A stretch of 64,000 nucleotides of DNA from Gammaproteobacteria bacterium (lineage in GTDB: Bacteria > Pseudomonadota > Gammaproteobacteria > Steroidobacterales > Rariloculaceae). The position numbers and the translations under genes were made by a program. The notes beneath the pieces are model-generated. The model was not told where the DNA came from. It was given only the letters and a program-made list of their open reading frames with translations, and did no database searches. The DNA is taken from NCBI GenBank assembly GCA_963665575.2, contig CAXXDW010000006.1, positions 1,201,122 through 1,265,121 of the forward strand. Reading direction: 5' to 3'. Shown here piece after piece: positions 4,435-19,942 of the stretch. Within the stretch, counting starts at the first letter, position 1, and every line of letters starts with the position of its first letter.

Positions 4435-5748
4435 GTGGAACTCGGAATGCTTCGGATTATCCTTGTGTTCGGTCTCGCAGCCGGTATTGCCGCTTGCAGT
4501 TCGATGCCGCAGCAGAGCCAGCAGGGTTCGCAGGGTTCGCCGAGCCAGCCGAGCCCGTCGAGCAGCGGGCCGAGTTCCCCGTCCGGCGGTCAAAGTTCCC
4601 CCTCGGGCGGTCAGAGTTCGCCCGCCGGTGGCCAGAGTTCGCCCGCCGGTGGCCAGAGTTCCCCCTCGGGCGGACAACCGGGTCCGCAAAGTTCGACCCC
4701 GTCTCCCTCGTCGGGTATTCCGTCCCCGCCGTCGTCGGGTATCCCTTCTCCCTCGTCAGGCATCCCGTCTCCCTCGTCCGGCATCCCATCGCCGTCCGCG
4801 GGGATCCCGTCCCCGCCGAGTTCGCAGGGTCAGAGCGGTCAGTCGGGATCGGACTCGCAGCGCGCTTCGACTGATGGCGATTCGGCAGACGGCCGGCAGG
4901 CTCGGAGCGGCGGTCCGGATCAGCAGGGCGGCGACAGTGCCGATGGTCAACAGGCCCGGACCGGCGGACAGCAGGATCAGGACGGTGCCGGCGGACAGCA
5001 GGATCGGGCGGGCGCCGGGGGCGAGGAACAGATTGCCGGATCCGGCGGCGAGGACGACGCTGCCGGGGCTGGTGGCGACGAGCAGCTCGCCGGAGCTGGC
5101 GGCGAGGACGATGCCTCGGGTGCCGGCGGCGATGAGGAATCCGGTGGATCCGGCGGCGAGGAAGAGCTTGCCGGAGCCGGCGGACAGGAAGAAGGCGACG
5201 GCGCCGGCGGCGACTCGCGCGTCGCTTCGGCCGGCGGCGAGGAAGGCGTTCCCGGCGGCGCTGAGGGCGACGGTTCCGGCGTCGAGGAAGGCGTTTTCGG
5301 CGACGGCAGCCAGGCGTCGACGGGTGCCGGCGGCGAGGATGCGTTCGACCGCTCGCTCGAGGATTTCGATGCGATCCTCGGTGCGGAACAGGAAGTGCTC
5401 GCCCGTACGGGCACGGGCACGGCCGCTGATCAGGTGTTCTCCGATGCTGCCGGGATCGGCGGCGTAGTCGGCGGCATCGAGGGTCTCGCACCCGGCAGCG
5501 ATCAGCAGGACGAGGAGGCGACGGGCGGCAGCGTCGGCGCCACTGTATCGTCGGGCGCGCGCACGGCCGAGCGGCGCCCCCCCGACTTTGTTGGAGACGA
5601 ACCCGCTGCGGCAATCGAAGGCTGCAACGATGAAGACACGGTCGCGCGGCAACTGTGTGAGCTTGCTACCGACGAGGAAGATCCGATTCTTCGCGAGCAG
5701 CTCTGGGAGGAATACAACGAGTACCTCAAGATCGTTGCGCGACAGTAG
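4435..5748 (+). CDS. repeat-rich, intrinsically disordered lipoprotein
   Basis: Strong SD AAGGAGG precedes GTG 4435. Lipobox LAAGIAAC. In-frame tandem repeats: GGQSSP(S/A) x5, SSGIPSP x5 and about 10 acidic GAGGE(D/E) units. Conserved-looking C-terminus: EGCNDEDTVARQLCELATDEEDPILREQLWEEYNEYLK. Confidence 0.7.
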   Translation: MELGMLRIILVFGLAAGIAACSSMPQQSQQGSQGSPSQPSPSSSGPSSPSGGQSSPSGGQSSPAGGQSSPAGGQSSPSGGQPGPQSSTPSPSSGIPSPPSSGIPSPSSGIPSPSSGIPSPSAGIPSPPSSQGQSGQSGSDSQRASTDGDSADGRQARSGGPDQQGGDSADGQQARTGGQQDQDGAGGQQDRAGAGGEEQIAGSGGEDDAAGAGGDEQLAGAGGEDDASGAGGDEESGGSGGEEELAGAGGQEEGDGAGGDSRVASAGGEEGVPGGAEGDGSGVEEGVFGDGSQASTGAGGEDAFDRSLEDFDAILGAEQEVLARTGTGTAADQVFSDAAGIGGVVGGIEGLAPGSDQQDEEATGGSVGATVSSGARTAERRPPDFVGDEPAAAIEGCNDEDTVARQLCELATDEEDPILREQLWEEYNEYLKIVARQ

Positions 5749-5763
5749 GTGGGAGAAGGACTT

Positions 5764-7104
5764 ATGCACCGAATTTTCATAATTTTGATCGGGCTGTATG
5801 CGCTGTCAGCCTGCACCACATCGGAAGTGCTTGTGGCTCACTCGGTCGATCTCGAGTCGAGCGTGCAGGCGATTCCCGAGGCGCAGTTGCTCGATGTCGG
5901 AATCGTGGTTTTCGACCCCGGCGTGCCCGCGGGCGAGATTCCCGAGGCGGAAGTCGAGCAATTGATGGCCGAGGGCAGTTTCCCGCAGGTGCGCCGTGCG
6001 GAAGCCCTGTACATGGCCGTGGAACTGCGCGACACGCTGCAGCAGAGCGGTCATTGGGGCGGCGTCTGGGTCACACCCGAAGAGTCGACGGCGTCTGACC
6101 TCAACGTGACCGCCGAGATCATGCAGTCCGACGGCGCGACCGTGCGCCTGCAGGTCGAGGCCAGGGACGCTTTGGGCCGCGTCTGGCTCAACGAGCCCTA
6201 CGAGCTTGAAACTGCGGCAGGCGTTTACAACCGTGGACGTTATCCGGACAAGGACCCGTATCAGGACCTCTTCAACTCGATCGCCAACGATCTCGCCGAG
6301 TTGCGCGCTGAACTGTCCGCCGACGAGGCGAGCGAAATCCGCACAGTCGCCGATCTGCGCTATGCGTCCGAACTGAGCCCCGACGCCTTCGACGGCTACG
6401 TCGTCGTGAACCGCGGCGGCGAATTCGAGCCCGTTCGCCTGCCTGCCGCCGGCGATCCGATGTTCGATCGCACGCAGCAGATCCGGCAGCGAGAGCAATT
6501 GTTCTTCGACACGCTGAACCAGCACTATGCGAGTTTTTCCGCCGACGCCGGGGAGTCCTACGACAGTTGGCGGGAGTACGCGCGCGAAGAGGCGATCGCG
6601 ATCCGCGAGATCACGCGCCAGTCCCGCTGGCAAACGGGCCTTGGCATCGCAACGATCCTGGCGGCCATCGCCTACGGTTCGAACTCTTCCAACGACGCCT
6701 ATTCGGACTACCTGATCCAGCAGGGCGTCACCTACATCGGCATGGAGATGATCCGTTCCGGTGCGATCAGGCGCCAGGAGAGACGCCTGCACACCGAAAC
6801 GCTCGAGGAGTTGTCGCTGAGTTTCGACGAATCCGTCGAGCCGCTCGTGGTCGACATCCAGGGCACGCAGCACCGCCTGACCGGTACCGTCCAGACACAG
6901 TACGCGGAGTGGCGCGAACTGCTCAAGGAACTTTTCGTCAGCGAGACGGGTTTCGCACCGGAAAATCTCGACGTCTACATGGAAGCCGAGACGGAACCGG
7001 CCGAAGAAGTACAGTTGCTCGAAATCGACGTAGCTCCCGGCGCTGACGCGGACGCCGAGGAAGGCGTGACCGATGCGGACGGGGGCGCGGCCAGCGGAGT
7101 CTAG
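5764..7104 (+). CDS. hypothetical lipoprotein with one internal hydrophobic segment
   Basis: ggagaagga SD lies before ATG 5764. MHRIFIILIGLYALSAC lipobox. Hydrophobic stretch WQTGLGIATILAAIAYG. It starts 16 nt after the preceding gene ends. Confidence 0.65.
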   Translation: MHRIFIILIGLYALSACTTSEVLVAHSVDLESSVQAIPEAQLLDVGIVVFDPGVPAGEIPEAEVEQLMAEGSFPQVRRAEALYMAVELRDTLQQSGHWGGVWVTPEESTASDLNVTAEIMQSDGATVRLQVEARDALGRVWLNEPYELETAAGVYNRGRYPDKDPYQDLFNSIANDLAELRAELSADEASEIRTVADLRYASELSPDAFDGYVVVNRGGEFEPVRLPAAGDPMFDRTQQIRQREQLFFDTLNQHYASFSADAGESYDSWREYAREEAIAIREITRQSRWQTGLGIATILAAIAYGSNSSNDAYSDYLIQQGVTYIGMEMIRSGAIRRQERRLHTETLEELSLSFDESVEPLVVDIQGTQHRLTGTVQTQYAEWRELLKELFVSETGFAPENLDVYMEAETEPAEEVQLLEIDVAPGADADAEEGVTDADGGAASGV

Positions 7105-7242: not shown

Positions 7243-8130
7243 GTGGATCGGCGGGTGAATTCGGCCAGACTGCTGCGAACGTTTCCAAAACCGGCGTCTC
7301 GATCGACCGGGAATCCTTTTGGCGGTCTGGAGGTTCATCTCGAACGACGCCTCGCTACCGGCCGCATGACCGAAGTCTGGTTCGGTTGCGCTGGCGGCGG
7401 GCATCCACGCGCGATCAAGACGCTCAAGCCCGTCTGGCTTGCGAAGCCCGGCGCCCGGGCAAAACTGCAGCGCGAGTACGAATTGCTTCGGAGCCTGCGG
7501 CATCCGCACATCGTCGGCGCGCAAGCGTTTATTGACGAACCGGATTGCGCGGCGATCGTTTGCGAGTATCTTGGCGGCGGCGACCTCGTGAGCCTCGCGG
7601 GCGCTCCCCCGCGCCACTGGATCGCCGCCGTGCGCGATGTGCTCGCTGCGATCGAGTACCTGCATGACCGCGGTTTGGCGCATCGCGACGTCAAGGCGCG
7701 CAACGTGATGTTCGACGGCGAAGGCCGGGCGCGCCTGATCGATCTGGGCTCCGCGGCCCGCATCGGCACGGCATGGACGCAGCACGGCACAACCGCGGCA
7801 CATCGGCCCGCGCAGCCGCGGTCAGGCCGCGTGGGCGCGGAGCAGGACCTCTACGCATTCGCCGTGCTGCTTTGTGAACTCCTGTCGGGGCGGCTGCCAT
7901 TCGCGGAGGAGCCCGGCGCCGACGCCGGGGCGGATACGCCGTGGCTGACGTTCGAAACCAACGGCAGCCTCGAACCCGCGGCCCAATGCAAGGACAGCCC
8001 GGAACTCGACGCGCTCGGGCAACTCGTGCTTGCGGTGCTTGCTCCCGGCGGCGGGCCTGGAGTCGGCAGCGTATCGCAGTTCTCCAATGTCATAGAATCA
8101 GTGTTCGCCAGCGAGTCCGAACAGCCGTGA
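7243..8130 (+). CDS. Hanks-type serine/threonine protein kinase (kinase domain only)
   Basis: RAIKTLKP (subdomain II Lys), EYELLRSLRHPHIV, HRDVKARN catalytic loop (7681-7704), DLG (DFG equivalent), DLYAFAVLLCELLSGRLPF (subdomain IX). No TM segment or extra domain. The start codon is uncertain. Confidence 0.8.
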   Translation: MDRRVNSARLLRTFPKPASRSTGNPFGGLEVHLERRLATGRMTEVWFGCAGGGHPRAIKTLKPVWLAKPGARAKLQREYELLRSLRHPHIVGAQAFIDEPDCAAIVCEYLGGGDLVSLAGAPPRHWIAAVRDVLAAIEYLHDRGLAHRDVKARNVMFDGEGRARLIDLGSAARIGTAWTQHGTTAAHRPAQPRSGRVGAEQDLYAFAVLLCELLSGRLPFAEEPGADAGADTPWLTFETNGSLEPAAQCKDSPELDALGQLVLAVLAPGGGPGVGSVSQFSNVIESVFASESEQP

Positions 8131-9632
8131 CCGAACGAGACCCGAGCCCGCAACACGAACAGACCATCGTCGCGGTCAAGCCGGGGTTCGGCGCCGCAAA
8201 GCGAGGGTCCGCCAAGCCGAGTCAGGCGAAACGGCGGCTGCCGTGGCTCGCTCTTTCAGCCGCGGGCCTTGTTTTGCTCGCTCTGGCCGTGTTCTTCGTG
8301 CTGCCGAACTGGGTCGAGGAACAGTCGGCGAACACGCCCGTAGAGGCGCCGGCCGCCGTCGCGGCGCCCGAGCCCGCCGGTCCGGTCCTGTCCGAAGAAG
8401 AACTCGCTGCACTTGAAGCTCGGGCAGAGTCGCTGTTGGCCGCGCTGTTGCCGCAGCAGGCGCGGCTCGAGGAGTTGTCGGCGTCCGTTTGGGGCGGTAC
8501 GCAATGGGAGCGCTACGAGGAAACGGCGCGCGGCGCCGATGACGCGCTGTTGGCCGATGCCTTCGCCGAAGCCGCGACGGCGTATGAGGCAGCGCTTGCC
8601 GTCGGCGAAGGCTTGCTCGAGCGTTCCTACGAGATCATCCGTGCGGCACTGGACAGCGGCCGACAGGCGCTTGAGGCTGGCAATTCCGAGCTCGCGATCG
8701 AACAGTTCGACCTGGTGCTCAGCATCGAACCCGGCAACGCAGCGGCTCAAGCCGGTCGCGCGCGTGCCGGGCGTCTGCCCGAAGTCATCGAGCTGGTGCG
8801 CGAGGGCGACGAGCTGCGCCAGGGGCAGCAACTGGAGGCCGCCGCCGATGCCTACCGCGCGGCGCTCGCGATCGACGGACGCTGGGACCCGGCACGCGCG
8901 GCCCTGACTGCCGTAATGGCCGACATCGCGCGCTCGAGCTTCGATGCGCTGCTCTCGGAAGGCTTTGCGGCGTTGGCGGACGAGGATTTCGACGAAGCGC
9001 AGTCACGCTTCACCGCGGCGCTGGCCATGCGGGCGGACTCCAGGGATGCGCGTGACGGATTGACGCTGGCCGAGCAGGGCCTGGAACTTCAGCAGATCGA
9101 GATGGCCGAAGCCAGGGCGCTTGCCTTCGAACGACGCGAACTGTGGGATCGTGCGATTGCGCAGTACGAGTCGGCGCTTGCGGCCGACGCGACACTCGAG
9201 TTCGCGCTCGCGGGTCTTGCGCGCTCGCGCGAGCGCAGCGACCTCGACGCGAAGCTTGTGAACCTGATCGAGAACCCCGAATTGTTGTTGAGCGATACTG
9301 TCCTTGCGGAAGCCGAAGCGCTAGCAGAACAGGCGCATACGATTGCCGACCCCGGCGCGAGGCTCGACGGGCAACTCGTCCGCCTCGATGAGCTCATCCT
9401 GGCCGCGACGACGCCGTTGCCTGTGCAGCTTCAGTCCGATGAGCTCACCGAGGTCACCGTCTATCGCGTCGGCCAGCTCGGTACGTTCCTGGCGACGCAG
9501 ATCGAAGTCCGGCCGGGCAGCTACACGGTGGTTGGCAGCCGCAGGGGCTACAGGGACGTTCGCAAGACTTTCACTGTTCTGCCGGGCCGCGAGATGCCGC
9601 CGATCAGCGTCATGTGCGTAGAGCCGATCTGA
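8127..9632 (+). CDS. single-pass membrane protein with TPR-like repeats and a C-terminal PEGA-like beta domain
   Basis: GTG 8127 overlaps the kinase stop (GTGA). TM segment LPWLALSAAGLVLLALAVFFVL. At least 4 TPR-like units, e.g. ALEAGNSELAIEQFDLVLSIEPGNAAAQ and GQQLEAAADAYRAALAIDGRWDPA. C-terminus: IEVRPGSYTVVGSRRGYRDVRKTFTVLPG. Confidence 0.7.
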   Translation: MTERDPSPQHEQTIVAVKPGFGAAKRGSAKPSQAKRRLPWLALSAAGLVLLALAVFFVLPNWVEEQSANTPVEAPAAVAAPEPAGPVLSEEELAALEARAESLLAALLPQQARLEELSASVWGGTQWERYEETARGADDALLADAFAEAATAYEAALAVGEGLLERSYEIIRAALDSGRQALEAGNSELAIEQFDLVLSIEPGNAAAQAGRARAGRLPEVIELVREGDELRQGQQLEAAADAYRAALAIDGRWDPARAALTAVMADIARSSFDALLSEGFAALADEDFDEAQSRFTAALAMRADSRDARDGLTLAEQGLELQQIEMAEARALAFERRELWDRAIAQYESALAADATLEFALAGLARSRERSDLDAKLVNLIENPELLLSDTVLAEAEALAEQAHTIADPGARLDGQLVRLDELILAATTPLPVQLQSDELTEVTVYRVGQLGTFLATQIEVRPGSYTVVGSRRGYRDVRKTFTVLPGREMPPISVMCVEPI

Positions 9633-9652
9633 GCTGCGGAGGCCGGGAGCGG

Positions 9653-12091
9653 ATGAGCAAATCGAACGAGTGGATCCTGGCGACGAGCGAGTCGGGGTAC
9701 ACGCGGTATTTCGAAGCGGAGTCGCTGCCGGTCTCGATCGGCGGGAGCGGCGGCGACGATATCAGGCTCGGCGGCATTTCAGGCTCGGCGCAGATCGGTG
9801 TGCTCGACGGCGTCTTCTTCGTACAGGCGGGCCGGACCACGACCAACGTGCGGATCGGCGGCGAGCTGCTCAGAAGTTCGCGCCGGCTCGCCGACGGCGA
9901 CGTCATCGCACTGGACAGCGCTCGCCTGAACTGTGCCATCGCCGCCGGAAAGCTGACGGTGTCGATCGAAGCCAGGGTCACCGCGGGCGACACCGCACCG
10001 CCCGATCTCGAGGAACTCGCGCGTGCCGGCGACGAAGGCGGCGACGAGATCGCGATCGCGCCCGTCGCGTTTCGCTCCGGGGCGAGCTCGGCTCAACCGT
10101 CGCGTCCCAGGCGCCCGAGGGTGGCGACGATGGTCGTCGCGGCCGCATTCGCCGTGCTCGCCGTGCTCGGTTGGTTCGCGTTCACCGCGAAGTCCGTACA
10201 GCTCGTCTTCGAGCCGGCCGCCGACGAGTTCAGCCTGCCGTCAACCTTGTTCAAGTTTCAGCTCGGCGACCGGATGTTGCTGCGTTCGGGAACGCACCAG
10301 CTGGCCGCGCAAGTCGAGGGCTACTATCCCCTCGATACCACCGTCGAGGTCGGCCCGTTGCCCGATCAGTCCTTCGAACTCCCGTTCACGAAGTTGCCGG
10401 GCCTGATCACGCTTCGAACCGAGCCCGAGGCGGGCGCCGAAGCAAGCATTGAGGGCGAGCTGCTCGGCCAGACGCCGCTCGTCGATTTCGAGCTGGAACC
10501 CGGGGTGCACCGCATCGAGTTTGCGGCAGACCGATATTTGCCGGAGGTTCGCGAGCTCACGGTCGAGGGCGGCCGCGAGCGCCAGTCGCTGACGGCGGAG
10601 CTTACGCCGGACTGGGCGCCGGTGACGATCAGCAGCGTCCCGCCGGGCGCCGACATCGTCGTCGACGGTGAAACCGTGGGCGTCACGCCGACCGAAGTCG
10701 AGATCACCGCCGGCGAGCGGCGCATCGAGGTCCGGCTCGGCGGCTACAACGCCTGGGGCATGCTGCTCAATGTCGTCGCCGACAGCGCACAAAGTCTGCC
10801 GCTCATCACCCTGGATCCGGCCGACGGGCGCATCGAACTCGTCAGCGTCCCGAGCGAGGCGGCCGTGAGCGTCAACGGCGAGTACCGCGGCCGGACGCCG
10901 CTCGAACTTCGCCTTAGCCCGTCACGTACGCACGAGATCGTGCTGAGCCGGCCGGGCTATGTTTCACGAACTCTCGAGTTGTCGGTCGCCGCCGACAGCG
11001 GACGCGTCGTGGAGCTCGAACTCGAGGCTCAATTGGGCGAGATCGTCGTGCAAAGCACGCCGCCCGGTGCCGAGATCTGGGTCGACGGCAACCGCGAGGC
11101 CTCCACGCCCGCAACGCTCAATCTGCTTGCGATCAGTCACGACATCGAGATTCGTCAGATCGGTTACGTGCCGCAGGGCGCCGAAGTGACTCCGCGGCCC
11201 GGGTTTACCCAGACGCTCGATTTCGATCTCGAGGTGCTCGACGACGCCTCCGGCAGCGGCTATCCGCGCATCGTGCAAACGGCGATCGGGCAGGAACTCA
11301 GGCTCGTACCCGCGGGTACGTTTTCGATGGGCTCGTCGCGGCGCGAGCAGGGACGCCGTTCCAACGAGACACTGCGCGACGTGCAGATCAGCCGCGCCTT
11401 CTATCTCGGTGTGCGCGAAGTCAGCAACGCCGAGTTTCGGATGTTCCGTCAGGAGCACTATTCGGGCGAGTTCGCTAACACGTCGCTCGACGGCGACGAG
11501 CAGCCCGTGGTTCGGGTGACCTGGGAAGACGCCGCAATGTTCCTCAATTGGCTCAGCGCGCGCGACGGGCTGCAACCTGTCTACGCGCCGACGACGACCT
11601 CGTGGGCGCCGATCCGGCCGATCAGGAACGGCTACCGTTTGCCGACCGAGGCGGAGTGGGCCTGGGCGGCGCGCGCCGCGGAACGCGACGAGCCGCTGGT
11701 CTATCCCTGGGGTCCGCAACCGCCGCCGCCGGATCGCTCGGGCAACTACGCCGACCTGTCGGCAGCCGCGATCCTGCCGACGACCCTCGTGACCTACAAC
11801 GACGGGTTCGCGGTGACCGCGCCCGCGGGCAGCTTCGAGCCGAACGTGCTCGGCATTTTCGATCTGGGCGGCAATGTGTCGGAGTGGCTGCAGGACTTCT
11901 ACGAGGTCAGGGTCATCGCGCCGGAGACCCTCGAGATCGATCCCCTGGGGCCGGAAACCGGCCGGTTCAACATGATTCGGGGCGCGAGCTGGCGCAGCGC
12001 CACCGTGACGGACCTCAGGCTCGCCTACCGCAACTACGGATCCCAGCCTCGCGAAGATCTCGGTTTCCGTATCGCGCGGAATCTGGAATGA
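9653..12091 (+). CDS. FHA - TM - multiple PEGA - FGE/SUMF1-fold (formylglycine-generating-enzyme-like) protein
   Basis: gggagcgg SD before ATG 9653. N-terminal FHA (LPVSIGGSGGDDIRL...GGELLRSSRRLADGDVIAL). TM segment VATMVVAAAFAVLAVLGWFAF. At least 4 PEGA units (VPPGADIVVDGETVGVTP, VPSEAAVSVNGEYRGRTP, TPPGAEIWVDGNREASTP...). C-terminal FGE fold: LVPAGTFSMGS...PVVRVTWEDAAMFLNWLS...GYRLPTEAEWAWAAR...GNVSEWLQD...IRGASW...LGFRIAR. Confidence 0.85.
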   Translation: MSKSNEWILATSESGYTRYFEAESLPVSIGGSGGDDIRLGGISGSAQIGVLDGVFFVQAGRTTTNVRIGGELLRSSRRLADGDVIALDSARLNCAIAAGKLTVSIEARVTAGDTAPPDLEELARAGDEGGDEIAIAPVAFRSGASSAQPSRPRRPRVATMVVAAAFAVLAVLGWFAFTAKSVQLVFEPAADEFSLPSTLFKFQLGDRMLLRSGTHQLAAQVEGYYPLDTTVEVGPLPDQSFELPFTKLPGLITLRTEPEAGAEASIEGELLGQTPLVDFELEPGVHRIEFAADRYLPEVRELTVEGGRERQSLTAELTPDWAPVTISSVPPGADIVVDGETVGVTPTEVEITAGERRIEVRLGGYNAWGMLLNVVADSAQSLPLITLDPADGRIELVSVPSEAAVSVNGEYRGRTPLELRLSPSRTHEIVLSRPGYVSRTLELSVAADSGRVVELELEAQLGEIVVQSTPPGAEIWVDGNREASTPATLNLLAISHDIEIRQIGYVPQGAEVTPRPGFTQTLDFDLEVLDDASGSGYPRIVQTAIGQELRLVPAGTFSMGSSRREQGRRSNETLRDVQISRAFYLGVREVSNAEFRMFRQEHYSGEFANTSLDGDEQPVVRVTWEDAAMFLNWLSARDGLQPVYAPTTTSWAPIRPIRNGYRLPTEAEWAWAARAAERDEPLVYPWGPQPPPPDRSGNYADLSAAAILPTTLVTYNDGFAVTAPAGSFEPNVLGIFDLGGNVSEWLQDFYEVRVIAPETLEIDPLGPETGRFNMIRGASWRSATVTDLRLAYRNYGSQPREDLGFRIARNLE

Positions 12092-12145
12092 TCTGCCATT
12101 GGCGCGGTCTAACGTGAGTGTTCGCACCCGGTGCGAGGAAGAGCG

Positions 12146-12382
12146 ATGAATACGATCCGGATACTTTTCGCGGTACTCGGCCTGAGCCTGGTCGCGCTCG
12201 CGACGATCGGCCAGGAAGCCGAGGGCGAGCCCGAGAGCCCGCCTCCGGCCGCCGGGGAGTCTGAGGCAGAGCCCACCGTGGAGCCTGCCGGGGAAGCTCC
12301 GCGAGGCACTTCCGATGAAGTGTTCATTCCGACCGTCGAGGTCCAGGCGGACGAGGAAGTCGTGTTTCCGGTGGACATCTAG
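12146..12382 (+). CDS. small secreted acidic protein
   Basis: gaggaagag SD before ATG 12146. Signal-like MNTIRILFAVLGLSLVALATIGQ, then an E/P/A-rich region and a C-terminal EVFIPTVEVQADEEVVFPVDI. Confidence 0.5.
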   Translation: MNTIRILFAVLGLSLVALATIGQEAEGEPESPPPAAGESEAEPTVEPAGEAPRGTSDEVFIPTVEVQADEEVVFPVDI

Positions 12383-12487: not shown

Positions 12488-13294
12488 ATGAGACGTACTT
12501 TTTTCGGCGAATTTCTCTTTCAGGCATTTGCGCTGATCGTCATGGTCATTCTCGTGCATGCGTTCTACGTGACGAGTGTGCGGCCCAATGCGACGTCGAT
12601 TCTCGAGGAGCAGGCGCTCAGGATTCAGCAGGAGGAGAACTACACGCCGGAACGCTCGTTCTGGGTGCTCATCAGGGACTTCGAGCAGGAAGCCTGTTTC
12701 ATCCTCATGTTCTGGGCGTTCGCGATCATGGGTTACAAGGCCGTCTTCATGTACAACGAGCGAACCTTGTTGCAGCGGGAGTTCCTGCCGGTGCCCGACG
12801 GCGTTCGAATACTTCCCGAAGACACGCGCGAGTACGGTCGCGCGATCGAGTCGCTGCCCGAACGGGTCAGGGCCATGCTGCTGCCCCGCGTGCTCTTGTC
12901 GTCGCTCGAGCGTTTCGGGTCGACGCGCAACGTTCAGGATGTGTCGTCGGTGGCGAATTCACTGTGCGAGGCCGAGGGCGAGCGGCTGGAGTCGGAGCTG
13001 TCGATGATCCGCTACATCGCCTGGGCCATACCTTCCGTGGGGTTCATCGGCACCGTACGGGGTATCGGCCAGGCGCTCGGCGAAGCGCAGCGCGCCGTCG
13101 AAGGGGACATCGCGGGCGTTACCGAGAACCTCGGGGTGGCATTCAACTCGACGTTCATAGCGCTTTTGATTTCGATCGTCGTCATGTTCCTGGTCCACCA
13201 GTTGCAGTTGTTTCAGGAGCGTCTCGTGTTCGATACGCAGACCTACGTCGACCACAACCTCATACGCCACATGCGAAGCCGCGGCGCCACCTAG
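12488..13294 (+). CDS. MotA/TolQ/ExbB proton-channel family protein
   Basis: Four predicted TM segments. The family signature lies in the last two helices (IPSVGFIGTVRGIGQAL ... GVAFNSTFIALLISIVVMFLV). A loop of about 100 aa sits between TM2 and TM3. Confidence 0.85.
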   Translation: MRRTFFGEFLFQAFALIVMVILVHAFYVTSVRPNATSILEEQALRIQQEENYTPERSFWVLIRDFEQEACFILMFWAFAIMGYKAVFMYNERTLLQREFLPVPDGVRILPEDTREYGRAIESLPERVRAMLLPRVLLSSLERFGSTRNVQDVSSVANSLCEAEGERLESELSMIRYIAWAIPSVGFIGTVRGIGQALGEAQRAVEGDIAGVTENLGVAFNSTFIALLISIVVMFLVHQLQLFQERLVFDTQTYVDHNLIRHMRSRGAT

Positions 13295-13308
13295 CCGAGC
13301 GAGGGGAG

Positions 13309-14709
13309 ATGCCTGCACGCGCGATCGAAATCAACGATGCCGGCCTTGTCGTCGCCGATGCGTCGGGCATCCTGGCCGTCGAGCCGGGCTATGCGCTGGT
13401 CGAGAAGGGCGCGATCACGACGGGATTGCAGGCATACGGGCAGGCGCGTCTGAAACCGCGCCAGGTCAGCAACAGCTTCTGGTCAAATCTCAGTCTGGAG
13501 AAGGGCAGTGCGGGCGTTGAGGGCGCGCCAAACTCCGCGGAACTTGCCTACAAACAGCTTGGCGCCCTGTGGAGCAGGTTCGCCGCCTCGACCGACGACG
13601 TCGTGCTCATCGTGCCGGGCCATTACGGTCAGGCCCAGCTCGGACTGCTGCTCGGTCTCGCCGAGGAGTGCGCGGTGCCGGTACGTGCCATGGTCGATGC
13701 TGCGGTCGCGGCAAGCCACCGGCCGTATCCCGGCCGCGAACTTGTCTACGTCGATGCGGGACTGCATCGGGTGTCCGTCACGGCGCTCGCGCAGGGCGAC
13801 GACGTGAGCGTGCGGTCCGAACAGCGCCTGGACAGCACCGGACTCGCCGGTCTCAATGATCTGCTTGCCCGGCGGGTCGCCGAGATGTTCGTGTTTGCGA
13901 GCCGCTTCGATCCGTTTCACGATGCCGCCAGCGAGCAGCTCCTCTATGACCGCTTGCCCGAATGGCTTGCGTCGCTGCACGAGCAGGGCTCGGCGGTGCT
14001 TGCGCTGCCGCACGGCGCCGATGAAGTCGAGGTTCAGATCGAGCGGGGACAACTGCTGAAGGTGGCGCTCGGCTTTTACAAGGCGCTGTTGCAGCTCATC
14101 GCACAAACGCGCGAGGCCCGATCGGGACTGGTCGTGCAATTGTCGGACCGGTTGGCTCGGTTGCCGGGAGTCATGGGTGAGTTGGCGCGCCTGGACGATT
14201 CCGAGGTGGTCGGTCTCGCGCCGGGGCACGCGGCCATTGCCGCGCTCGAGGGCTTCGCTGCAATGGACACGCGTAAAGGCGTGAAGCTGCTCCGACGCAT
14301 GTCCTGGCGCGCCGAGCCCGTGTCGGCTGTGGGGTCCGTGGCGGAAATCGCTGACACAGCGATCGCCGTGTCGGACACGCCCGTTCCGACCCATGTCGTC
14401 TATCGCGGCGTGGCGCATCCGGTCGACGGGGCGGGTCTCGTGATCGGCCGGTCCGGCGCCGAGGATCGGCAGGTCATCGTCGTGGACGATCAGCCCGGCG
14501 GCGTGTCCCGGTCGCACTGTGAACTCAGGCTCAGCAACGGCGAACTCAAGCTGCGCGACCTGTCGAGCTATGGTACTTTCGTGAACGAAAAGCGCGTCTC
14601 CGGAGAGGCTACGCTGCAGCCGGCGGACATCATCCGGATCGGCACTCCGGGCGCGGAGCTTCAGGTCGTAACGGTCAAGGCCCCGGAGCGGTCACATGGC
14701 ACGCCGTAG
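13309..14709 (+). CDS. actin/Hsp70-fold-like N-terminal domain fused to C-terminal FHA domain
   Basis: gaggggag SD before ATG 13309, internal to ORF 12481..14709. Hsp70-like strings: AIEINDAGLVVA, VLIVPGHYGQAQLGLLLGLAEECAVPVRAMVDAAVAAS, LVYVDAGLHRVSVTAL. C-terminal FHA: LVIGRSG...GVSRSHCELRLSNGELKLRDLSSYGTFVNEKRV...ADIIRIG. Confidence 0.75.
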   Translation: MPARAIEINDAGLVVADASGILAVEPGYALVEKGAITTGLQAYGQARLKPRQVSNSFWSNLSLEKGSAGVEGAPNSAELAYKQLGALWSRFAASTDDVVLIVPGHYGQAQLGLLLGLAEECAVPVRAMVDAAVAASHRPYPGRELVYVDAGLHRVSVTALAQGDDVSVRSEQRLDSTGLAGLNDLLARRVAEMFVFASRFDPFHDAASEQLLYDRLPEWLASLHEQGSAVLALPHGADEVEVQIERGQLLKVALGFYKALLQLIAQTREARSGLVVQLSDRLARLPGVMGELARLDDSEVVGLAPGHAAIAALEGFAAMDTRKGVKLLRRMSWRAEPVSAVGSVAEIADTAIAVSDTPVPTHVVYRGVAHPVDGAGLVIGRSGAEDRQVIVVDDQPGGVSRSHCELRLSNGELKLRDLSSYGTFVNEKRVSGEATLQPADIIRIGTPGAELQVVTVKAPERSHGTP

Positions 14710-15793
14710 GGAATTCAGCGTCATCTCGATGTCGTTTCTCGACGCGATGACCTGCGGTTTCGGCGCCGTGATCCTGTTTTTCATGATCATCACGGCCAAC
14801 ATCGATCTGAGGCGCGATACCGTGCTCGACGATGTGGCCGCCGAGGTCGACCGCATGGAAATCAGGGTCGTGGCCGGGCGCAGGAACCTCGTGCAGCTCA
14901 GGGAGGATCTCGCGCGCCTCCTCGAGGAGCGGTACACGACACGCGGCGTCAAGCAACAGATCATGGCGGAGATCGACACAACGCGCGAGGACCTGGTCAC
15001 GCAGGCCGAAGCCGCCGACATGCGCGACGATCTCATCGAGCAACTGCGGGCGGATCTCGCGGCCCTGGAAGAGGAGACCGAGCAACTCGCGATGACCGAC
15101 GACACGGCCGAAGAGGCGGGCGCCTCGATCCGCAGCGTACAGGGCGAAGGTTACCGCCAATACCTGACGGGGCTGCGCATGGGCGGACAGCGGATCGTCA
15201 TTCTCGTCGACGTCTCTGCGAGCATGCTCGACCGTACGCTCGTCAATATCATCCGCCGCCGCAACCTGCCTGACGTGCAAAAGCGCCAGGCGCCGAAGTG
15301 GCAGCAACTCGTCAACACCGTGGATTGGCTCACGGCGCAGATCCCGCCGGGTACGCAGTTCCAGGTGATCGCGTTCAACAATGAAGCCTGGTCGCTCGTT
15401 GAAGGGACCGACGGGCAGTGGCTTACGGCCAGCGACGCAAGTCAGCTCGACGAAGCCGTGCGCCGGTTGCGCGAGGAGACGGTCGCCGAAGGCCCGACGA
15501 GCCTGCACGTTGCGTTTCAGGCGGCAAGGCGCCTGCAACCCCGACCCGACAACATCTACCTGCTCGTCGACGGCCTGCCGACCATGGGCGGCGTCCAGCC
15601 GACCCGTAACGGCGTCACGAGCAGGGAGCGGCTCGGGCATTTCGAGCGCGCGACGCGCGAGCGGCCGATCGGCACTCCCGTCAACGTCATACTGCTGGCA
15701 ATGGAGGGCGACCCGCTCGCAGCGCCCGCCTACTGGCAGCTCGCGCTCGAGAGCGGCGGCTCGATGATGGCACCGGCGGAGGACTGGCCGTGA
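14696..15793 (+). CDS. ExbD/TolR-like TM anchor - coiled coil - von Willebrand factor A (vWA) domain protein
   Basis: Overlaps the upstream gene by 14 nt. N-terminus SVISMSFLDAMTCGFGAVILFFMII has a TM-proximal Asp (codon 14741-14743). A heptad-rich E/R/L segment follows. MIDAS motif DVSASM at 15209-15226. Confidence 0.8.
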   Translation: MARRREFSVISMSFLDAMTCGFGAVILFFMIITANIDLRRDTVLDDVAAEVDRMEIRVVAGRRNLVQLREDLARLLEERYTTRGVKQQIMAEIDTTREDLVTQAEAADMRDDLIEQLRADLAALEEETEQLAMTDDTAEEAGASIRSVQGEGYRQYLTGLRMGGQRIVILVDVSASMLDRTLVNIIRRRNLPDVQKRQAPKWQQLVNTVDWLTAQIPPGTQFQVIAFNNEAWSLVEGTDGQWLTASDASQLDEAVRRLREETVAEGPTSLHVAFQAARRLQPRPDNIYLLVDGLPTMGGVQPTRNGVTSRERLGHFERATRERPIGTPVNVILLAMEGDPLAAPAYWQLALESGGSMMAPAEDWP

Positions 15794-16800
15794 AAAAAAA
15801 GAAACGCCGCGGCATAGAGACGCTGAGCCTGTCGTTCCTCGACAGCATTTCCTGTGGTTTCGGGGCGATCATCCTGCTGCTCGTGATCACGAAGCTCTTC
15901 GAGCCGATCCGGCTCGAGGAGAGCAATCAGGAACTGGAGGGACTGCTCGCACGTTACGAACAGGAACTCACGGAGATACTCGGCGAGACCGAGACGGTGC
16001 AACGCGAACGCGTCACGACCGCCGAGACCGTCGAGGAAGACCAGGTCCAGGTCCTCGAGTTGCAGCAGGAACTCACGCGCATCCGTTCGATTCTGCTTGA
16101 CCGGGAGGACGACGAGACGGTCGCTGACGAACTCGCAGGCCGACTCGCGGCCGCCAAGCAGTCGCTGACAGAGGAAATGGAGCGCCTGCTCGCCAACCAG
16201 GTGCCCAATGTCGAGGACTACGCGATCGGCGGCGTTCCCGTCGACAGCGAGTACATCATCTTCATCATCGACACCTCCGGCAGCATGCGCAGTTACGCCT
16301 GGGACCGGGTCCAGCGGCAGATCAGCGAGACGCTCGACGTGTATCCCACCGTCAAGGGCATGCAGATCATCAACGACGAGGGGACGTATCTCTTCAGAAG
16401 CTATCGGGGCCAGTGGATACCGGATACGCCGGCCCGCCGGCGGGCAATCATCGATTCCCTGCCGAACTGGAACGCGTTCTCCGATTCGAGTCCGCGGGAG
16501 GGCATTCTCGAGGCGATCGAGAGGTTCTACGATCCCGAAAAGAAGATCTCGCTGTATGTGTACAGCGATGACTTCGCGCCGACATCGACGATTCGCCAGG
16601 TCGTGCGCGAAGTCGACCGGCGCAACAGGCGCGACGAGGATGGCAATCGCCGGGTCAGGATTCACGCGGTCGCCTTCCCGGTCTACTGGGACGTCATGGG
16701 CGACCTCGTCTCGTCCGCGCGCTACGCCACGCTCATGCGGGTGCTCTGTCAGCGCAACGGCGGAACCTTCGTCGCGCTGCCCTCGCGCCGCGACATCTGA
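15790..16800 (+). CDS. ExbD/TolR-like TM anchor - coiled coil - vWA domain protein (paralog of the preceding gene)
   Basis: GTG 15790 overlaps the upstream stop (GTGA). KKKKRR then LSLSFLDSISCGFGAIILLLVI (Asp codon 15841-15843). Coiled-coil segment. MIDAS motif DTSGSM at 16270-16287. Confidence 0.8.
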   Translation: MKKKKRRGIETLSLSFLDSISCGFGAIILLLVITKLFEPIRLEESNQELEGLLARYEQELTEILGETETVQRERVTTAETVEEDQVQVLELQQELTRIRSILLDREDDETVADELAGRLAAAKQSLTEEMERLLANQVPNVEDYAIGGVPVDSEYIIFIIDTSGSMRSYAWDRVQRQISETLDVYPTVKGMQIINDEGTYLFRSYRGQWIPDTPARRRAIIDSLPNWNAFSDSSPREGILEAIERFYDPEKKISLYVYSDDFAPTSTIRQVVREVDRRNRRDEDGNRRVRIHAVAFPVYWDVMGDLVSSARYATLMRVLCQRNGGTFVALPSRRDI

Positions 16801-17196: not shown

Positions 17197-17937
17197 ATGA
17201 CGAGAAACATACTGATACTGGCGTTGGCAGCCGGGCTTGCGAGCCCTGCCTGGACCGCCGAGAACAATGCCGCACCGAAGGAGGAGAGCATCGGCGTCGG
17301 CAGCGGCGTGGTCGTCGGTGCGCTCGCAGGCGGGCCGGTCGGCGCCATCGTTGGCGCCGCAATGGGCGGTTGGCTCGGCGACAAGTTCCACCGCGAGCGC
17401 TCGGCCAAGCTCGAGTTCGAGCGCCAGTCCGAACAGGCGCGACTCGAATGGGAGCGGGCGCAGCTCGAGGCCGATGAACTGCTCGCGAGGCTTGAGGAGA
17501 GTAACGCCGATCTCGGCCAGCTCAGGTCCGAGTGGCGCGCCGCGCAGGTGAACTACCGCAACGCGTTGCAGCAGGCGCTCGATACGCAGATCTACTTTCG
17601 CACCGGCGAGGCCGAACTCGAGGACGGAACTGGCGAACGCCTGAGCCGAATAGCCGGACTGATCGGCGAACTCGCCGATCTGACCGTCGTCGTCGAAGGC
17701 CATGCCGATGCGCGCGGCGCGGCGGACTACAACGAGCAGTTGTCGACTGCTCGGGCACAGGCCGTACGCGACGCCCTCGTGCGGGCCGGCGTCTCGCCGG
17801 GCCGGATCTTCTGGGTCGCCGAGGGCGAGCGTCATTCGACGTCCGATGAGAAGGACCTCGATGCCATGGCGCTCGACCGGCGCGTGAATCTGAGCATCGT
17901 GGACCGGAGCGCTGCGGACCGCATCGCGCAGCAGTAG
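17197..17937 (+). CDS. OmpA-family peptidoglycan-binding protein with glycine zipper and coiled coil
   Basis: aaggag SD before ATG 17197. Signal peptide MTRNILILALAAGLASPAWTA. Glycine zipper GVVVGALAGGPVGAIVGAAMGGWLG. Coiled coil ERQSEQARLEWERAQLEADELLARLEE. OmpA_C domain: IYFRTGEAEL...VVVEGHADARGAADYNEQLSTARAQAVRDALV...RRVNL. Confidence 0.85.
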   Translation: MTRNILILALAAGLASPAWTAENNAAPKEESIGVGSGVVVGALAGGPVGAIVGAAMGGWLGDKFHRERSAKLEFERQSEQARLEWERAQLEADELLARLEESNADLGQLRSEWRAAQVNYRNALQQALDTQIYFRTGEAELEDGTGERLSRIAGLIGELADLTVVVEGHADARGAADYNEQLSTARAQAVRDALVRAGVSPGRIFWVAEGERHSTSDEKDLDAMALDRRVNLSIVDRSAADRIAQQ

Positions 17938-17993: not shown

Positions 17994-18025
17994 GGGCCGC
18001 GTCAGGGATGGCGCGGCCCTTTCTC
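17994..18025. terminator. putative terminator hairpin between convergent genes
   Basis: gggccgcg (17994-18001) pairs with cgcggccc (18012-18019) and is followed by tttctc. It sits between the OmpA-like gene (+) and bioD (-). The U-tract is weak. Confidence 0.35.
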
Positions 18026-18716
18026 ATTCACGGGTCGCGTCGAGGTACGCTGCGACAAGCGGCAAGAGTTCTGGATACGCAGCATCATCGCCGCGCCGAC
18101 GGGGCAGGGCGATGATCGGCGTTGGAGCGAGGAAACGCTCGAGAACCTCGCGAGTCTCATCGAGCGGAACCGGCTGCTCGAGCGACTCGCTGACGATGAC
18201 GCCAGCGAGTTCGACGCTCTGCGCCCGGAGGGCCCCGGCCGCTGTCAGCGTATGGCTCAGGGCGCCGAGGTAGCTGCCCGTGACGAGCAGCGCGGGTGCG
18301 CCGAGCGCCGCGATCCAGTCGACGACCGTATGCCGCCCGTCGAGCGGCACCATGACGCCGCCGATCCCTTCGATGAGCGTCAGGTCGTAACCGTCGGATG
18401 CACGGCAGAAGCTCAGCAATTCGTCGAACGCAATGTGTATGCCTTCGCGCGCGGCCGCCATGTCGGGCGAGAGCGGCGCGGCGAACCTCCACGGCGACAC
18501 CGCGTCGAGCTCAGCGGTCGCGGGTTCAAGCCCTTGTGCGGCGAGCAGAAGGCCGGAGTCGCTTGCCTCGAGTTCGGCGGCGTCGAAGCCTGTCGCGACC
18601 GGTTTGAGGGTGCGCACGCCGAGCGATGTGCGGCTGAGTTCCTCGAGCAGCGCGCACATGACGAAGGTCTTGCCTACGCCGGTGCCCGAAGCCGTCACAA
18701 AGACCGTATTCTTCAT
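18024..18716 (-). CDS. bioD: dethiobiotin synthase
   Basis: C-terminal 230 aa of ORF 18024..19358, starting at MKNTVFVTASGTGVGKTFV (P-loop). Also ...LIEGIGGVMVPL... The upstream part of the ORF is an Arg-rich overlap with bioF and was rejected. Confidence 0.85.
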   Translation of the reverse strand: MKNTVFVTASGTGVGKTFVMCALLEELSRTSLGVRTLKPVATGFDAAELEASDSGLLLAAQGLEPATAELDAVSPWRFAAPLSPDMAAAREGIHIAFDELLSFCRASDGYDLTLIEGIGGVMVPLDGRHTVVDWIAALGAPALLVTGSYLGALSHTLTAAGALRAQSVELAGVIVSESLEQPVPLDETREVLERFLAPTPIIALPRRRGDDAAYPELLPLVAAYLDATRE

Positions 18717-18781
18717 TCGGCCGGATTCGGAGGACCGTGCGCCCCGACCGGCATCTCTCCGATGGCTCATCGGTCCCTTTG

Positions 18782-19942
18782 TCATGTTCCGTCCAGGATC
18801 GACCGGGCGGCTTCGGTCAGCTCTTGCACGTCGCGTTCGCAGTGCTCGGCCGAGAACGCAAACCGCAGCCGCGACGTGCCGGCAGGTACCGTCGGCGGCC
18901 TGATCGCGGCCACGAGGAAACCGGCTTCCCGCAACGCGCTTCCCGCTTCGACTGCGCGGGCCGCGGGGCCGAGAACGAGCGGTACGATCGCCGACTGCGC
19001 GGGTTCGAGTCCGAGCGCGGCCGCGAACGAACGCGCCCGCTTGACAGGGAGACCGACGAGGTCTTTCTCCGTCGCGATAATCTCGAGCGCGGTTGCGGCG
19101 GCTGCGACGGTTCCAGGCGGCAGTCCCGTCGAGAACCCGAAGCTGCGCGCACGATTGCGGATGAGTTCGCAGACTGCATGGCTCGCACAGATATAGCCGC
19201 CATAGCCGCCGGCGGCTTTTGACAGTGTGCCCATCTGCAGGTGCACGGCGACGGGCTCGTCGAACGCGAACGATGAGCCGCGGCCGGCGCCGACGACGCC
19301 GAGACCGTGCGCATCGTCCGTCATGAGCCAGGCATCGAAACGCCCGGCAAGTTCGCAAAGCTCCGGCAGCGGGGCGAGGTCGCCCTCCATGCTGAAGACG
19401 CCTTCAGTGAGCAGCAGGCAATGGCGGTGGCGGCTGCGCTCCGCGGCAAGTGCGGCGGCCGCAGCGGCGGGGTCGTTATGGTTGAAATGCACGACCTTCG
19501 CGCCGCTCAGCGCCGCGCCGCCGAGCAGGCAGGCGTGGCAGAACTCGTCCATGACGATGAGATCCACTTCGCCCGCGAGCAGCGGAATGACGCCGACGTT
19601 CGTGAGGTAGCCGCTGCCGAAGACGACCGCGTCCTCGGTGTCCTTGAGCGTGGCGAGCCGCGCTTCAAGCGCGGCGTAAAGCGGGTGATTGCCGGTGACC
19701 AGCCGCGAGGCGCCGGCGCCCGTGCCGTAGCGGCGTGTCGCTGCCAGACTTGCCTCCACGACCTCCGCACGATGCGACAGGCCGAGATAGTCGTTGCTTG
19801 CGAAGGACAGGAGGTCGCGCCCCTGGCTTCGAACACGGCGGCCGTCGACCTTCTCGGTGCTTGCGAGCGACCGCCTGAGTTCGCGGCGCTCGAGCGCCTG
19901 CAGCTTGCGTGTCGCAAACCCGTCGAGCGATCGGTCAGACAA
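18782..19942 (-). CDS. bioF: 8-amino-7-oxononanoate synthase
   Basis: SNDYLGL, GAGASRLVTGN, DDAHGLGVVG and GTLSKAAGGYGG (PLP Lys) are typical of BioF/alpha-oxoamine synthases. It lies adjacent to bioD. Confidence 0.9.
   Translation of the reverse strand: MSDRSLDGFATRKLQALERRELRRSLASTEKVDGRRVRSQGRDLLSFASNDYLGLSHRAEVVEASLAATRRYGTGAGASRLVTGNHPLYAALEARLATLKDTEDAVVFGSGYLTNVGVIPLLAGEVDLIVMDEFCHACLLGGAALSGAKVVHFNHNDPAAAAAALAAERSRHRHCLLLTEGVFSMEGDLAPLPELCELAGRFDAWLMTDDAHGLGVVGAGRGSSFAFDEPVAVHLQMGTLSKAAGGYGGYICASHAVCELIRNRARSFGFSTGLPPGTVAAAATALEIIATEKDLVGLPVKRARSFAAALGLEPAQSAIVPLVLGPAARAVEAGSALREAGFLVAAIRPPTVPAGTSRLRFAFSAEHCERDVQELTEAARSILDGT

Follow-up and report, generated by a model that had tools for sequence, protein, structure and literature searches.

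Introduction

Ion-driven motors of the 5:2 type, in which a pentamer of A subunits is combined with two B chains, power flagella, the import of nutrients across the outer membrane, envelope integrity, gliding and some phage defence. The Myxococcus motor has two different B chains, AglQ and AglS, and Zorya couples a MotA/MotB-like motor to long helical extensions. The subject of this report is a gene cluster in a 64,000 nucleotide stretch of DNA from a member of the Rariloculaceae (Gammaproteobacteria; GenBank assembly GCA_963665575.2, contig CAXXDW010000006.1, positions 1,201,122 to 1,265,121 of the forward strand), which we call the window and on which all coordinates given below are counted. 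The core of this cluster comprises a gene for a MotA/TolQ/ExbB-like A subunit and, downstream of it, the genes for two paralogous membrane proteins, vWA1 and vWA2, which carry an Asp in their single transmembrane (TM) helix and a vWA (von Willebrand factor A) domain on a periplasmic stalk.

The closest described systems are found in a recent paper on the Origin and Evolution of Bacterial Periplasmic Force Transducers (Mol Biol Evol 42:msaf138, 2025; PMC12204202), which presents a TPH-vWA class (its Fig. 4c,d) with Idiomarina loihiensis as the example. In this class TM-tethered vWA proteins, mostly in heterologous pairs, show a tight co-occurrence with tolQ homologues in the absence of tolR and exbD; their function was stated to be unknown. 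An AlphaFold 3 model of such a gene set places both Asp helices inside the TolQ-like pentamer, beside its Thr ring (PMC12204202). The account covers the tolQ-like and vWA genes alone, and a sulfatase-type domain, a kinase or an Hsp70 are not mentioned in it. A preliminary description of the window, made from its sequence, had known of no stator with vWA heads on record and had stated that the B chains of known 5:2 motors are identical. Both statements are wrong, the former because the TPH-vWA class had been described and the latter because the same paper reports paired heterologous tolR-like genes. The idea of a vWA-headed motor is therefore not new, PMC12204202 having already proposed it.

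Judged by the features that have been described for it, the locus in the window belongs to this computationally predicted kind, first predicted in 2025. It shares with the TPH-vWA class the heterologous vWA pair, the tolQ-like neighbour, the lack of tolR and exbD, the helix Asp, the Thr ring of the A subunit and the absence of an SHLS motif. Compared with the published account, the locus adds genes for two lipoproteins, a TM-TPR protein, an FHA-PEGA-FGE protein, a secreted peptide ending in FPxDI, a kinase, an Hsp70-FHA protein and an OmpA-like protein, and the carriers recorded here include Acidobacteriota, Desulfobacterota, Myxococcota, Spirochaetota, Planctomycetota and Gammaproteobacteria. 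What we contribute is a complete conserved gene set, which appears not to have been described previously, together with a candidate ligand, a candidate regulatory module and four cultured carrier strains (Maricurvus nonylphenolicus KU41E, Exilibacterium tricleocarpae R142, Geothermobacter hydrogeniphilus HR-1 and Thalassomonas sp. RHCl1). A motor with two inner chains that terminate in metal-dependent adhesion domains would widen the range of targets on which such motors act.

Comparison with other motors

The locus resembles the TolQ-TolR(-TolA) and ExbB-ExbD(-TonB) systems in the family of its A subunit, in both pore threonines, and in the adjacent genes for B-like chains, which are N-in, single-pass proteins with a basic N-terminus and the Asp. 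Unlike these systems, it shows no detectable homology in the B helix, has no ExbD/TolR periplasmic domain but a vWA head on a long stalk, contains two different B-like chains, and lacks a separate transducer of the TonB/TolA type. With MotA-MotB and PomA-PomB it has in common the A superfamily, the concept of an Asp-bearing B helix and the presence of an OmpA-like peptidoglycan-binding module in the system; here, however, the OmpA-like domain is on an optional separate protein and flagellar genes are absent. The A subunit aligns with, and matches structurally, TolQ and ExbB better than the MotA and PomA stators.

The Agl-Glt machinery of Myxococcus (AglR, AglQ/AglS, GltG, CglB) likewise combines a TolQ-like motor and two B chains with FHA, TPR, lipoprotein and vWA components. 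Its vWA domain sits on the outer-membrane lipoprotein CglB, whereas here the domains are on the B-like chains, and no Glt homologues were detected at the locus beyond a weak FHA match. GldL-GldM and PorL-PorM are also 5:2 motors with long periplasmic B extensions and an apparatus protein of the FGE fold (GldK/GldJ); the FGE-sulfatase-like protein of the cluster matches GldK with an E value of 3e-30, which is under the cut-off. In contrast to the locus, GldLM and PorLM belong to a different motor family with identical B chains and no vWA domain, and there are no genes of the type IX secretion system (T9SS) at the locus. The vWA ternary conflict systems (Kaur et al. 2020, eLife) were also considered; they are different systems, and that paper contains neither MotA nor ExbB.

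The A subunit

The protein of 268 amino acids encoded at 12488..13294 is, by its sequence, a member of the MotA/TolQ/ExbB family, as had been recognized in the preliminary description. It matches Pfam PF01618 with an E value of 3.2e-14 and 53.2 bits (curated cut-off 22.9). The single sequence gave no match when compared by phmmer with the PDB, and a family profile was needed to reach TolQ, the sole significant PDB match of the profile hidden Markov model (HMM) of the family (E 0.0075). When the alignment of 73 orthologues was compared using hhalign with a TolQ/ExbB profile built from 77 loci the probability was 93.7% (E 2e-7). In an ungapped block of this alignment T189 (13052-13054) corresponds to TolQ T145 and T222 (13151-13153) to TolQ T178, the equivalents of T148 and T181 of ExbB. 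Both of these pore-threonine equivalents are invariant (73/73 orthologues), and conservation within the protein is highest in TM3 and TM4, with a mean commonest-residue frequency of 0.92 and 0.87, respectively. In our reading, five copies of the A protein most likely make up the proton channel of a motor of the 5:2 type.

The cytoplasmic domain of the A subunit also contains an invariant T-R-N-[IV]-Q-D-V-S motif (residues 146-153; 12923-12946). T146 with I or V at position +3 fits the usual preference of FHA domains (pT-x-x-I/V); the motif is kept in kinase-less genomes as well.

The vWA proteins

The genes for vWA1 (14696..15793, 365 amino acids) and vWA2 (15790..16800, 336 amino acids) specify the first and the second, diverged, B-like subunit. 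They had been described as following the MotA-like gene; they do lie downstream of it, but not directly, a gene for an Hsp70-FHA protein of 466 amino acids (13309-14709), which had gone unmentioned, being situated between them. The features that had been stated for the proteins themselves are all present at the coordinates given. Each has a basic N-terminus, N-in topology and a single TM helix with an Asp near its cytoplasmic end. In vWA1 the helix comprises approximately residues 13-34 (14732-14797) and the Asp is D16 (codon GAC, 14741-14743); in vWA2 it comprises approximately residues 15-36 (15832-15897) and the Asp is D18 (GAC, 15841-15843). The paralogy of the two proteins extends from end to end (BLASTP E 2e-9, 22% identity), and residues 2-360 of vWA1 align with residues 4-330 of vWA2 in a profile-profile comparison (probability 99.8%, E 1e-27). 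The assignment of a vWA fold to vWA2 rests on this full-length match to vWA1.

The AlphaFold2 model of vWA1, calculated from an alignment of 63 sequences, has a mean predicted local distance difference test score (pLDDT) of 89.6. It contains a single continuous helix from residue 9 to 132, comprising the TM segment and a stalk of about 100 residues. This is followed by a linker, poorly modelled but partly conserved, and by the vWA domain (residues 166-365, domain pLDDT >90). Foldseek confirmed the vWA nature of this head, the matches including CLCA1 (E 3e-8), BatA/BatB-like proteins, ITIH1 and the anthrax-toxin receptors. The periplasmic part of these proteins is thus a helical stalk and a vWA domain, with no domain of the ExbD/TolR type, and the OmpA-like domain is found on a separate protein. 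Within the linker (15140-15190) a G-x-G-x-R-Q-Y-L-T-G-L sequence is conserved ahead of the vWA domain.

Both metal-ion-dependent adhesion site (MIDAS) motifs noted earlier, DVSASM and DTSGSM, are present. The MIDAS of vWA1 consists of D172, S174 and S176 (15209-15223, DVSASM), T268 and D292; all are invariant in 85 of 85 orthologues except for T268, which is found in 84. That of vWA2 consists of D161-T-S-G-S165 (16270-16284, DTSGSM) and D260, with D161, S163, S165 and D260 invariant in 78/78. Since an invariant Ser-rich S-x-S-S-P motif occupies the position of the MIDAS Thr in vWA2, its site is atypical. These counts, and those for the helix Asp given below, refer to orthologues extracted from the first 88 loci. 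A conserved basic insertion of about 20 residues (…LD-x-T-x-VN-I-I-R-R-R-N…APKW; 15224-15300) follows the first MIDAS loop of vWA1 and is lacking in vWA2.

Two further observations concern these proteins. Their TM-plus-stalk regions (14696-15100 and 15790-16200) resemble the NCBIfam model of cyanobacterial HpsJ-like proteins (E 7.6e-4 and 0.024, far under the cut-off), which may reflect coiled-coil composition alone; a literature search on HpsJ gave nothing relevant. In addition, the same type of vWA domain is found fused to the N-terminal domain of BlaR1-type (peptidase M56) sensor-transducers, in place of the Asp helix and stalk, in five proteins (P0236, P0141, P0194, P0240 and P0258, with Pfam confirmation for the first two).

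Conservation of the Asp helix

The Asp, the conservation of which had been singled out for checking in the preliminary description, is invariant: D16 in 85/85 vWA1 and D18 in 78/78 vWA2 orthologues. The sequence S-F-L-D-x-(M/I)-x-C-G-F-G-A-x-x-L is present in every N-terminally complete member of the vWA1 family. The motif is not due to chance: all orthologues recovered, of vWA1 and of vWA2 alike, retain S-F-L-D-x-x-x-C-G-F-G-A-x-x-L, and at least 600 stretches in the GTDB species genomes match the pattern. Conservation in vWA1 and vWA2 is highest in the TM helix, where the commonest residue has a mean frequency of 0.79 and 0.86; in the vWA domain the values are 0.63 and 0.67, and in the stalk they are about 0.5. 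The conserved positions (13-16, 20-24 and 27) span all faces of the helix, which suggests that it is surrounded by protein and does not face lipid. Neither helix contains His or an SHLS motif.

Gene linkage and distribution

Linkage was assessed in 156 non-redundant loci centred on vWA1 from the GTDB species genomes. The vWA2 gene adjoins vWA1 in 135 of 141 loci. In 125/131 the MotA-like gene is situated just upstream of the vWA pair and in a further 3/131 it comes after vWA2, such that it is linked in 128/131 (ca. 98%). The reciprocal situation, a MotA-like gene of this clade without vWA genes, had been put forward as something to look for and is almost never encountered: in a MotA-centred scan of metagenome contigs vWA1 was present in all 41 loci whose downstream sequence was long enough, and the complete vWA pair in 33 of 34. 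Searches by tblastn with E. coli ExbD, TolR and MotB, which covered the window and, at 88 loci, the surrounding sequence within about 10 kb, revealed no B-type gene, the sole match being that of the OmpA-like domain to the C-terminus of MotB.

The three loci in which the MotA-like gene has moved to a position after vWA2 (L016-L018) come from one uncultured lineage of Gammaproteobacteria, and the gene is diverged there (42-45% identity). The sister lineage of this group is formed by L012-L014, in which the cluster is complete but for the MotA-like gene, absent within 10 kb.

The vWA1 family is large, with at least 5,409 matches in a 90%-identity database and at least 1,313 clusters at 50% identity (E up to 1e-3), and is abundant in marine and sediment bacteria. 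Among the Gammaproteobacteria, carriers belong to the Woeseiaceae, Steroidobacteraceae, Cellvibrionaceae and Alteromonadales (including Thalassomonas and Colwellia); other carriers are Acidobacteriota, Desulfobacterales and other Deltaproteobacteria, Myxococcales, Spirochaetales, and the Isosphaeraceae of the Planctomycetota. The closest relatives of the window are metagenome-assembled genomes of Candidatus Rariloculus. The conserved cluster consists of 8-11 genes, of which those for the kinase, the Hsp70-FHA protein and the OmpA-like protein are accessory; a simpler subtype, with the order TPR-FGE-peptide-MotA-vWA1-vWA2, has neither the kinase nor the Hsp70-FHA gene.

Proposed mechanism

We consider it probable, with some reserve, that the locus specifies an ion-driven motor in which one vWA1 and one vWA2 helix occupy the pore of a TolQ/ExbB-type pentamer, and proton flow is coupled to movement of the stalked heads. 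This reading draws on the family membership of the A subunit, the invariant Thr and Asp residues, the conserved helix, the linkage of the genes, the absence of a linked B gene in the loci searched and the published AlphaFold 3 model of the class. The MotA-like pentamer would serve as the proton channel, and the Asp helices of vWA1 and vWA2 would be inserted into it in place of the ExbD/TolR/MotB dimer. The uptake and release of protons by D16 and D18, set against the ring of T189 and T222, would drive a relative movement, to be passed along the helical stalks (about 100 residues, or roughly 15 nm, in the vWA1 model) to two unlike periplasmic heads. The heads may bind an acidic partner, for which the FPxDI secreted peptide and the two lipoproteins are candidates. 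The Hsp70-like/FHA protein, present in about 60% of the loci and usually accompanied by the kinase, probably regulates the motor by phosphorylation. The 5:1:1 stoichiometry, the proton coupling, the movement and the ligand are what we infer from these data.

A number of observations weigh against this proposal, most of which concern the helix. It had been claimed that the pattern of the vWA helices is that of ExbD, TolR and MotB; this holds for the position of the Asp and for the topology, and the similarity at the profile level is not significant. Using hhalign with a profile of 81 TolR/ExbD sequences, the Asp falls in register with TolR D23 (score 15.4, P = 0.03); however, scores of 11.0 and 13.7 were obtained for two TM helices taken as controls from the same clusters, and of 100 profiles with shuffled columns 6 reach at least 15.4. 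The TolR helices had been collected by a TM-based pattern, which makes this profile narrow in the TM region. Two N-terminal fragments of about 60 residues gave no ExbD/TolR (PF02472) or MotB match in hmmscan against Pfam at E values up to 10, and the N-terminal family HMM, compared with all PDB sequences at the same limit, found no ExbD, TolR or MotB, yielding chance matches to NDUFB4. The Gly/Cys-rich C-G-F-G-A core is, moreover, unlike that of any canonical B subunit. The vWA helices thus resemble B subunits in architecture and position, homology to the ExbD/TolR/MotB helix is not shown, and the view that the vWA proteins work like stator B subunits is supported indirectly.

The remaining difficulties lie elsewhere. 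The likeness of the locus to the TPH-vWA class is one of described features and not of alignment to the Idiomarina genes. The AlphaFold2 monomer of the A subunit, made from a shallow alignment, is of low confidence (pLDDT 53.8), so that its top Foldseek matches, although all to ExbB/TolQ (E 8e-3, TM-score 0.46-0.59), lend weak support. Lastly, three of the 131 loci (L012-L014) have no MotA-like gene within 10 kb.

Alternative explanations

Some of the same proteins would suit a transmembrane signalling device, in which ligand binding by the vWA domains shifts the Asp helices or gates the proton flux and the FHA, Hsp70-like and kinase proteins read out the result, or in which the signal runs in reverse. 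Two FHA proteins and a kinase within one operon are what one might expect of such a device, and vWA domains of this type also occur joined to BlaR1-type sensor-transducer domains. Kinase and Hsp70-FHA genes occur together in 39/70 loci and the Hsp70-FHA gene alone in 14; the kinase is never found without it. Yet the 17 loci that have neither keep the MotA-vWA-vWA core, and the Thr pair of the proton path and both Asp residues are conserved, as an energised motor needs. The long rigid stalks of the model suggest mechanical transmission. A device for signalling is in our opinion unlikely, though it deserves to be kept in mind.

In a second alternative the vWA proteins would be ordinary anchored periplasmic proteins of the BatA/BatB-like kind, and the MotA-like protein would act alone or with an unlinked ExbD/TolR-like partner. 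BatA/BatB-like vWA domains are among the closest structural matches, the TM helix is without detectable ExbD/TolR homology, and three loci lack a linked MotA-like gene, all of which would suit it. A plain anchor, on the other hand, would not be the most conserved segment of the protein, with an invariant buried Asp in both paralogues and in several phyla, nor would it explain the linkage of ca. 98% to the MotA-like gene and the absence of a B-type gene from the neighbourhood (about 10 kb) of the 88 loci searched by tblastn. We find this alternative quite improbable.

The vWA proteins could also bind to the outside of the pentamer, as do the force transducers TonB and TolA, the true B subunit being missing or unrecognised. 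A separate family of TonB-like vWA transducers with an SHLS motif has indeed been described (PMC12204202), but the helices considered here have an Asp instead of His or SHLS, no tolR-like gene was found alongside them by tblastn in 88 loci, and the published models of the class put the helices in the pore (PMC12204202); external binding is accordingly very improbable.

A Zorya-like anti-phage defence on a MotAB-like core, suggested by the long helical extensions of the motor in both cases and by the resemblance of the kinase to defence-associated kinases in PADLOC, is scarcely credible. PADLOC made no defence-system assignment and matched neither the A subunit nor the vWA and Hsp70-FHA proteins, a weak match to the C-terminus of ZorB being confined to the OmpA-like domain. 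Nucleases and other effectors are missing from the cluster, the remaining components belong to the envelope, and its chromosomal context beside bioF and bioD is stable in related genomes.

Returning to the ion-driven motor, its place in the cluster invites a wider proposal, which in our estimate falls somewhat short of an even chance. The core may be the engine of a widespread trans-envelope machine comprising also the two lipoproteins, the TM-TPR protein, the FHA-PEGA-FGE protein and the FPxDI peptide, in which a rotor formed by the vWA heterodimer would exert a pull or a turn on an acidic ligand bound at its MIDAS sites and which, in many lineages, would be phospho-switched through the FHA and Hsp70-like proteins. 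It would represent a new functional class of 5:2 motor. The literature searched contained no description of such a trans-envelope machine. If this proposal is true, the new class would take its place alongside the flagellar, Ton, Tol, gliding/T9SS and Zorya motors.

Other genes of the cluster

In the window the cluster occupies the + strand between about 4447 and 17937, its 11 genes all reading in one direction, and ends at a strong terminator-like hairpin (17994..18019; 11-bp stem with 9 G-C pairs, T-rich tail). In its core, the end of the Hsp70-FHA gene overlaps the start of vWA1 by 14 nt, and the GTG start codon of vWA2 overlaps the stop codon of vWA1, which suggests translational coupling.

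The first gene (4447..5748) specifies, from its translation, a lipoprotein with the lipobox LAAC and a long disordered, very acidic stretch rich in Ser, Pro, Gly, Asp and Glu. Its C-terminal segment of about 35 amino acids is helical and conserved, being kept in 38 + 39 related loci; a Pfam scan of this protein was without match. Comparison of the loci identified the second gene (5764..7104) as that of a conserved lipoprotein of about 447 amino acids (lipobox LSAC), found in 69 of 70 loci having at least 9 kb of upstream sequence. It has no known domains, neither a Pfam match nor, by profile search, a PDB relative being found.

The accessory Ser/Thr protein kinase (7243..8130; Pfam Pkinase E 7e-28) is followed by a protein (8127..9632; 101/102 loci) that combines a TM helix at its N-terminus with a TPR-like region and, at the C-terminus, a beta domain; its GTG start codon overlaps the stop codon of the kinase gene (GTGA). 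The next gene (9614..12091, possibly starting at 9653 instead) was present in 102/102 loci. Its product has a cytoplasmic FHA domain, a TM helix, four PEGA domains (Pfam E 9e-45) and an FGE-sulfatase-like domain (Pfam E 3e-40); the N-terminal profile matches FHA domains (Ki-67, E 8e-5).

Between the FGE and the MotA-like genes lies that of a small secreted protein of 83 amino acids (12131..12382), which has a signal peptide, an acidic, Pro-rich middle part and the C-terminal end …FIPTVEVQADEEVVFPVDI. The ending F-x-P-[ST]-E-x-[IV]-x-A-D-x-x-[VI]-x-F-P-x-[DN]-I-COOH is invariant, and an ORF with this terminus is found at this position in 185 of 186 non-redundant loci. Because it is acidic and secreted, this protein is a candidate ligand of the MIDAS-type heads.

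The Hsp70-FHA protein (13309..14709) is predicted to be cytoplasmic, with an actin-fold nucleotide-binding domain like that of Hsp70 and a C-terminal FHA domain (Pfam FHA E 6e-14). The family profile of its N-terminal 300 residues matches Hsp70 nucleotide-binding domains (SSB1, 3e-5; DnaK, 6e-5), and FHA domains are matched as well when the family profile is compared with the PDB. D10, which we take to be the equivalent of the phosphate-1 Asp of Hsp70, is invariant. The gene is present in 83/131 loci.

The last gene (17197..17937) is accessory, occurring in 22 of 123 loci, and specifies a secreted protein in which a glycine zipper and a coiled coil accompany an OmpA-like peptidoglycan-binding domain (Pfam OmpA E 2e-18). 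It also matches the NCBIfam PdsO-like model (E 1e-38, under the curated cut-off). Downstream of the cluster, on the minus strand (18024-19942), are homologues of AAA_26 (bioD-like) and Aminotran_1_2 (bioF-like). The same bioD-like and bioF-like neighbours lie downstream in relatives at approximately 63% identity (L005 and L007), and the retention of this neighbourhood points to a stable place on the chromosome and not to a mobile island.

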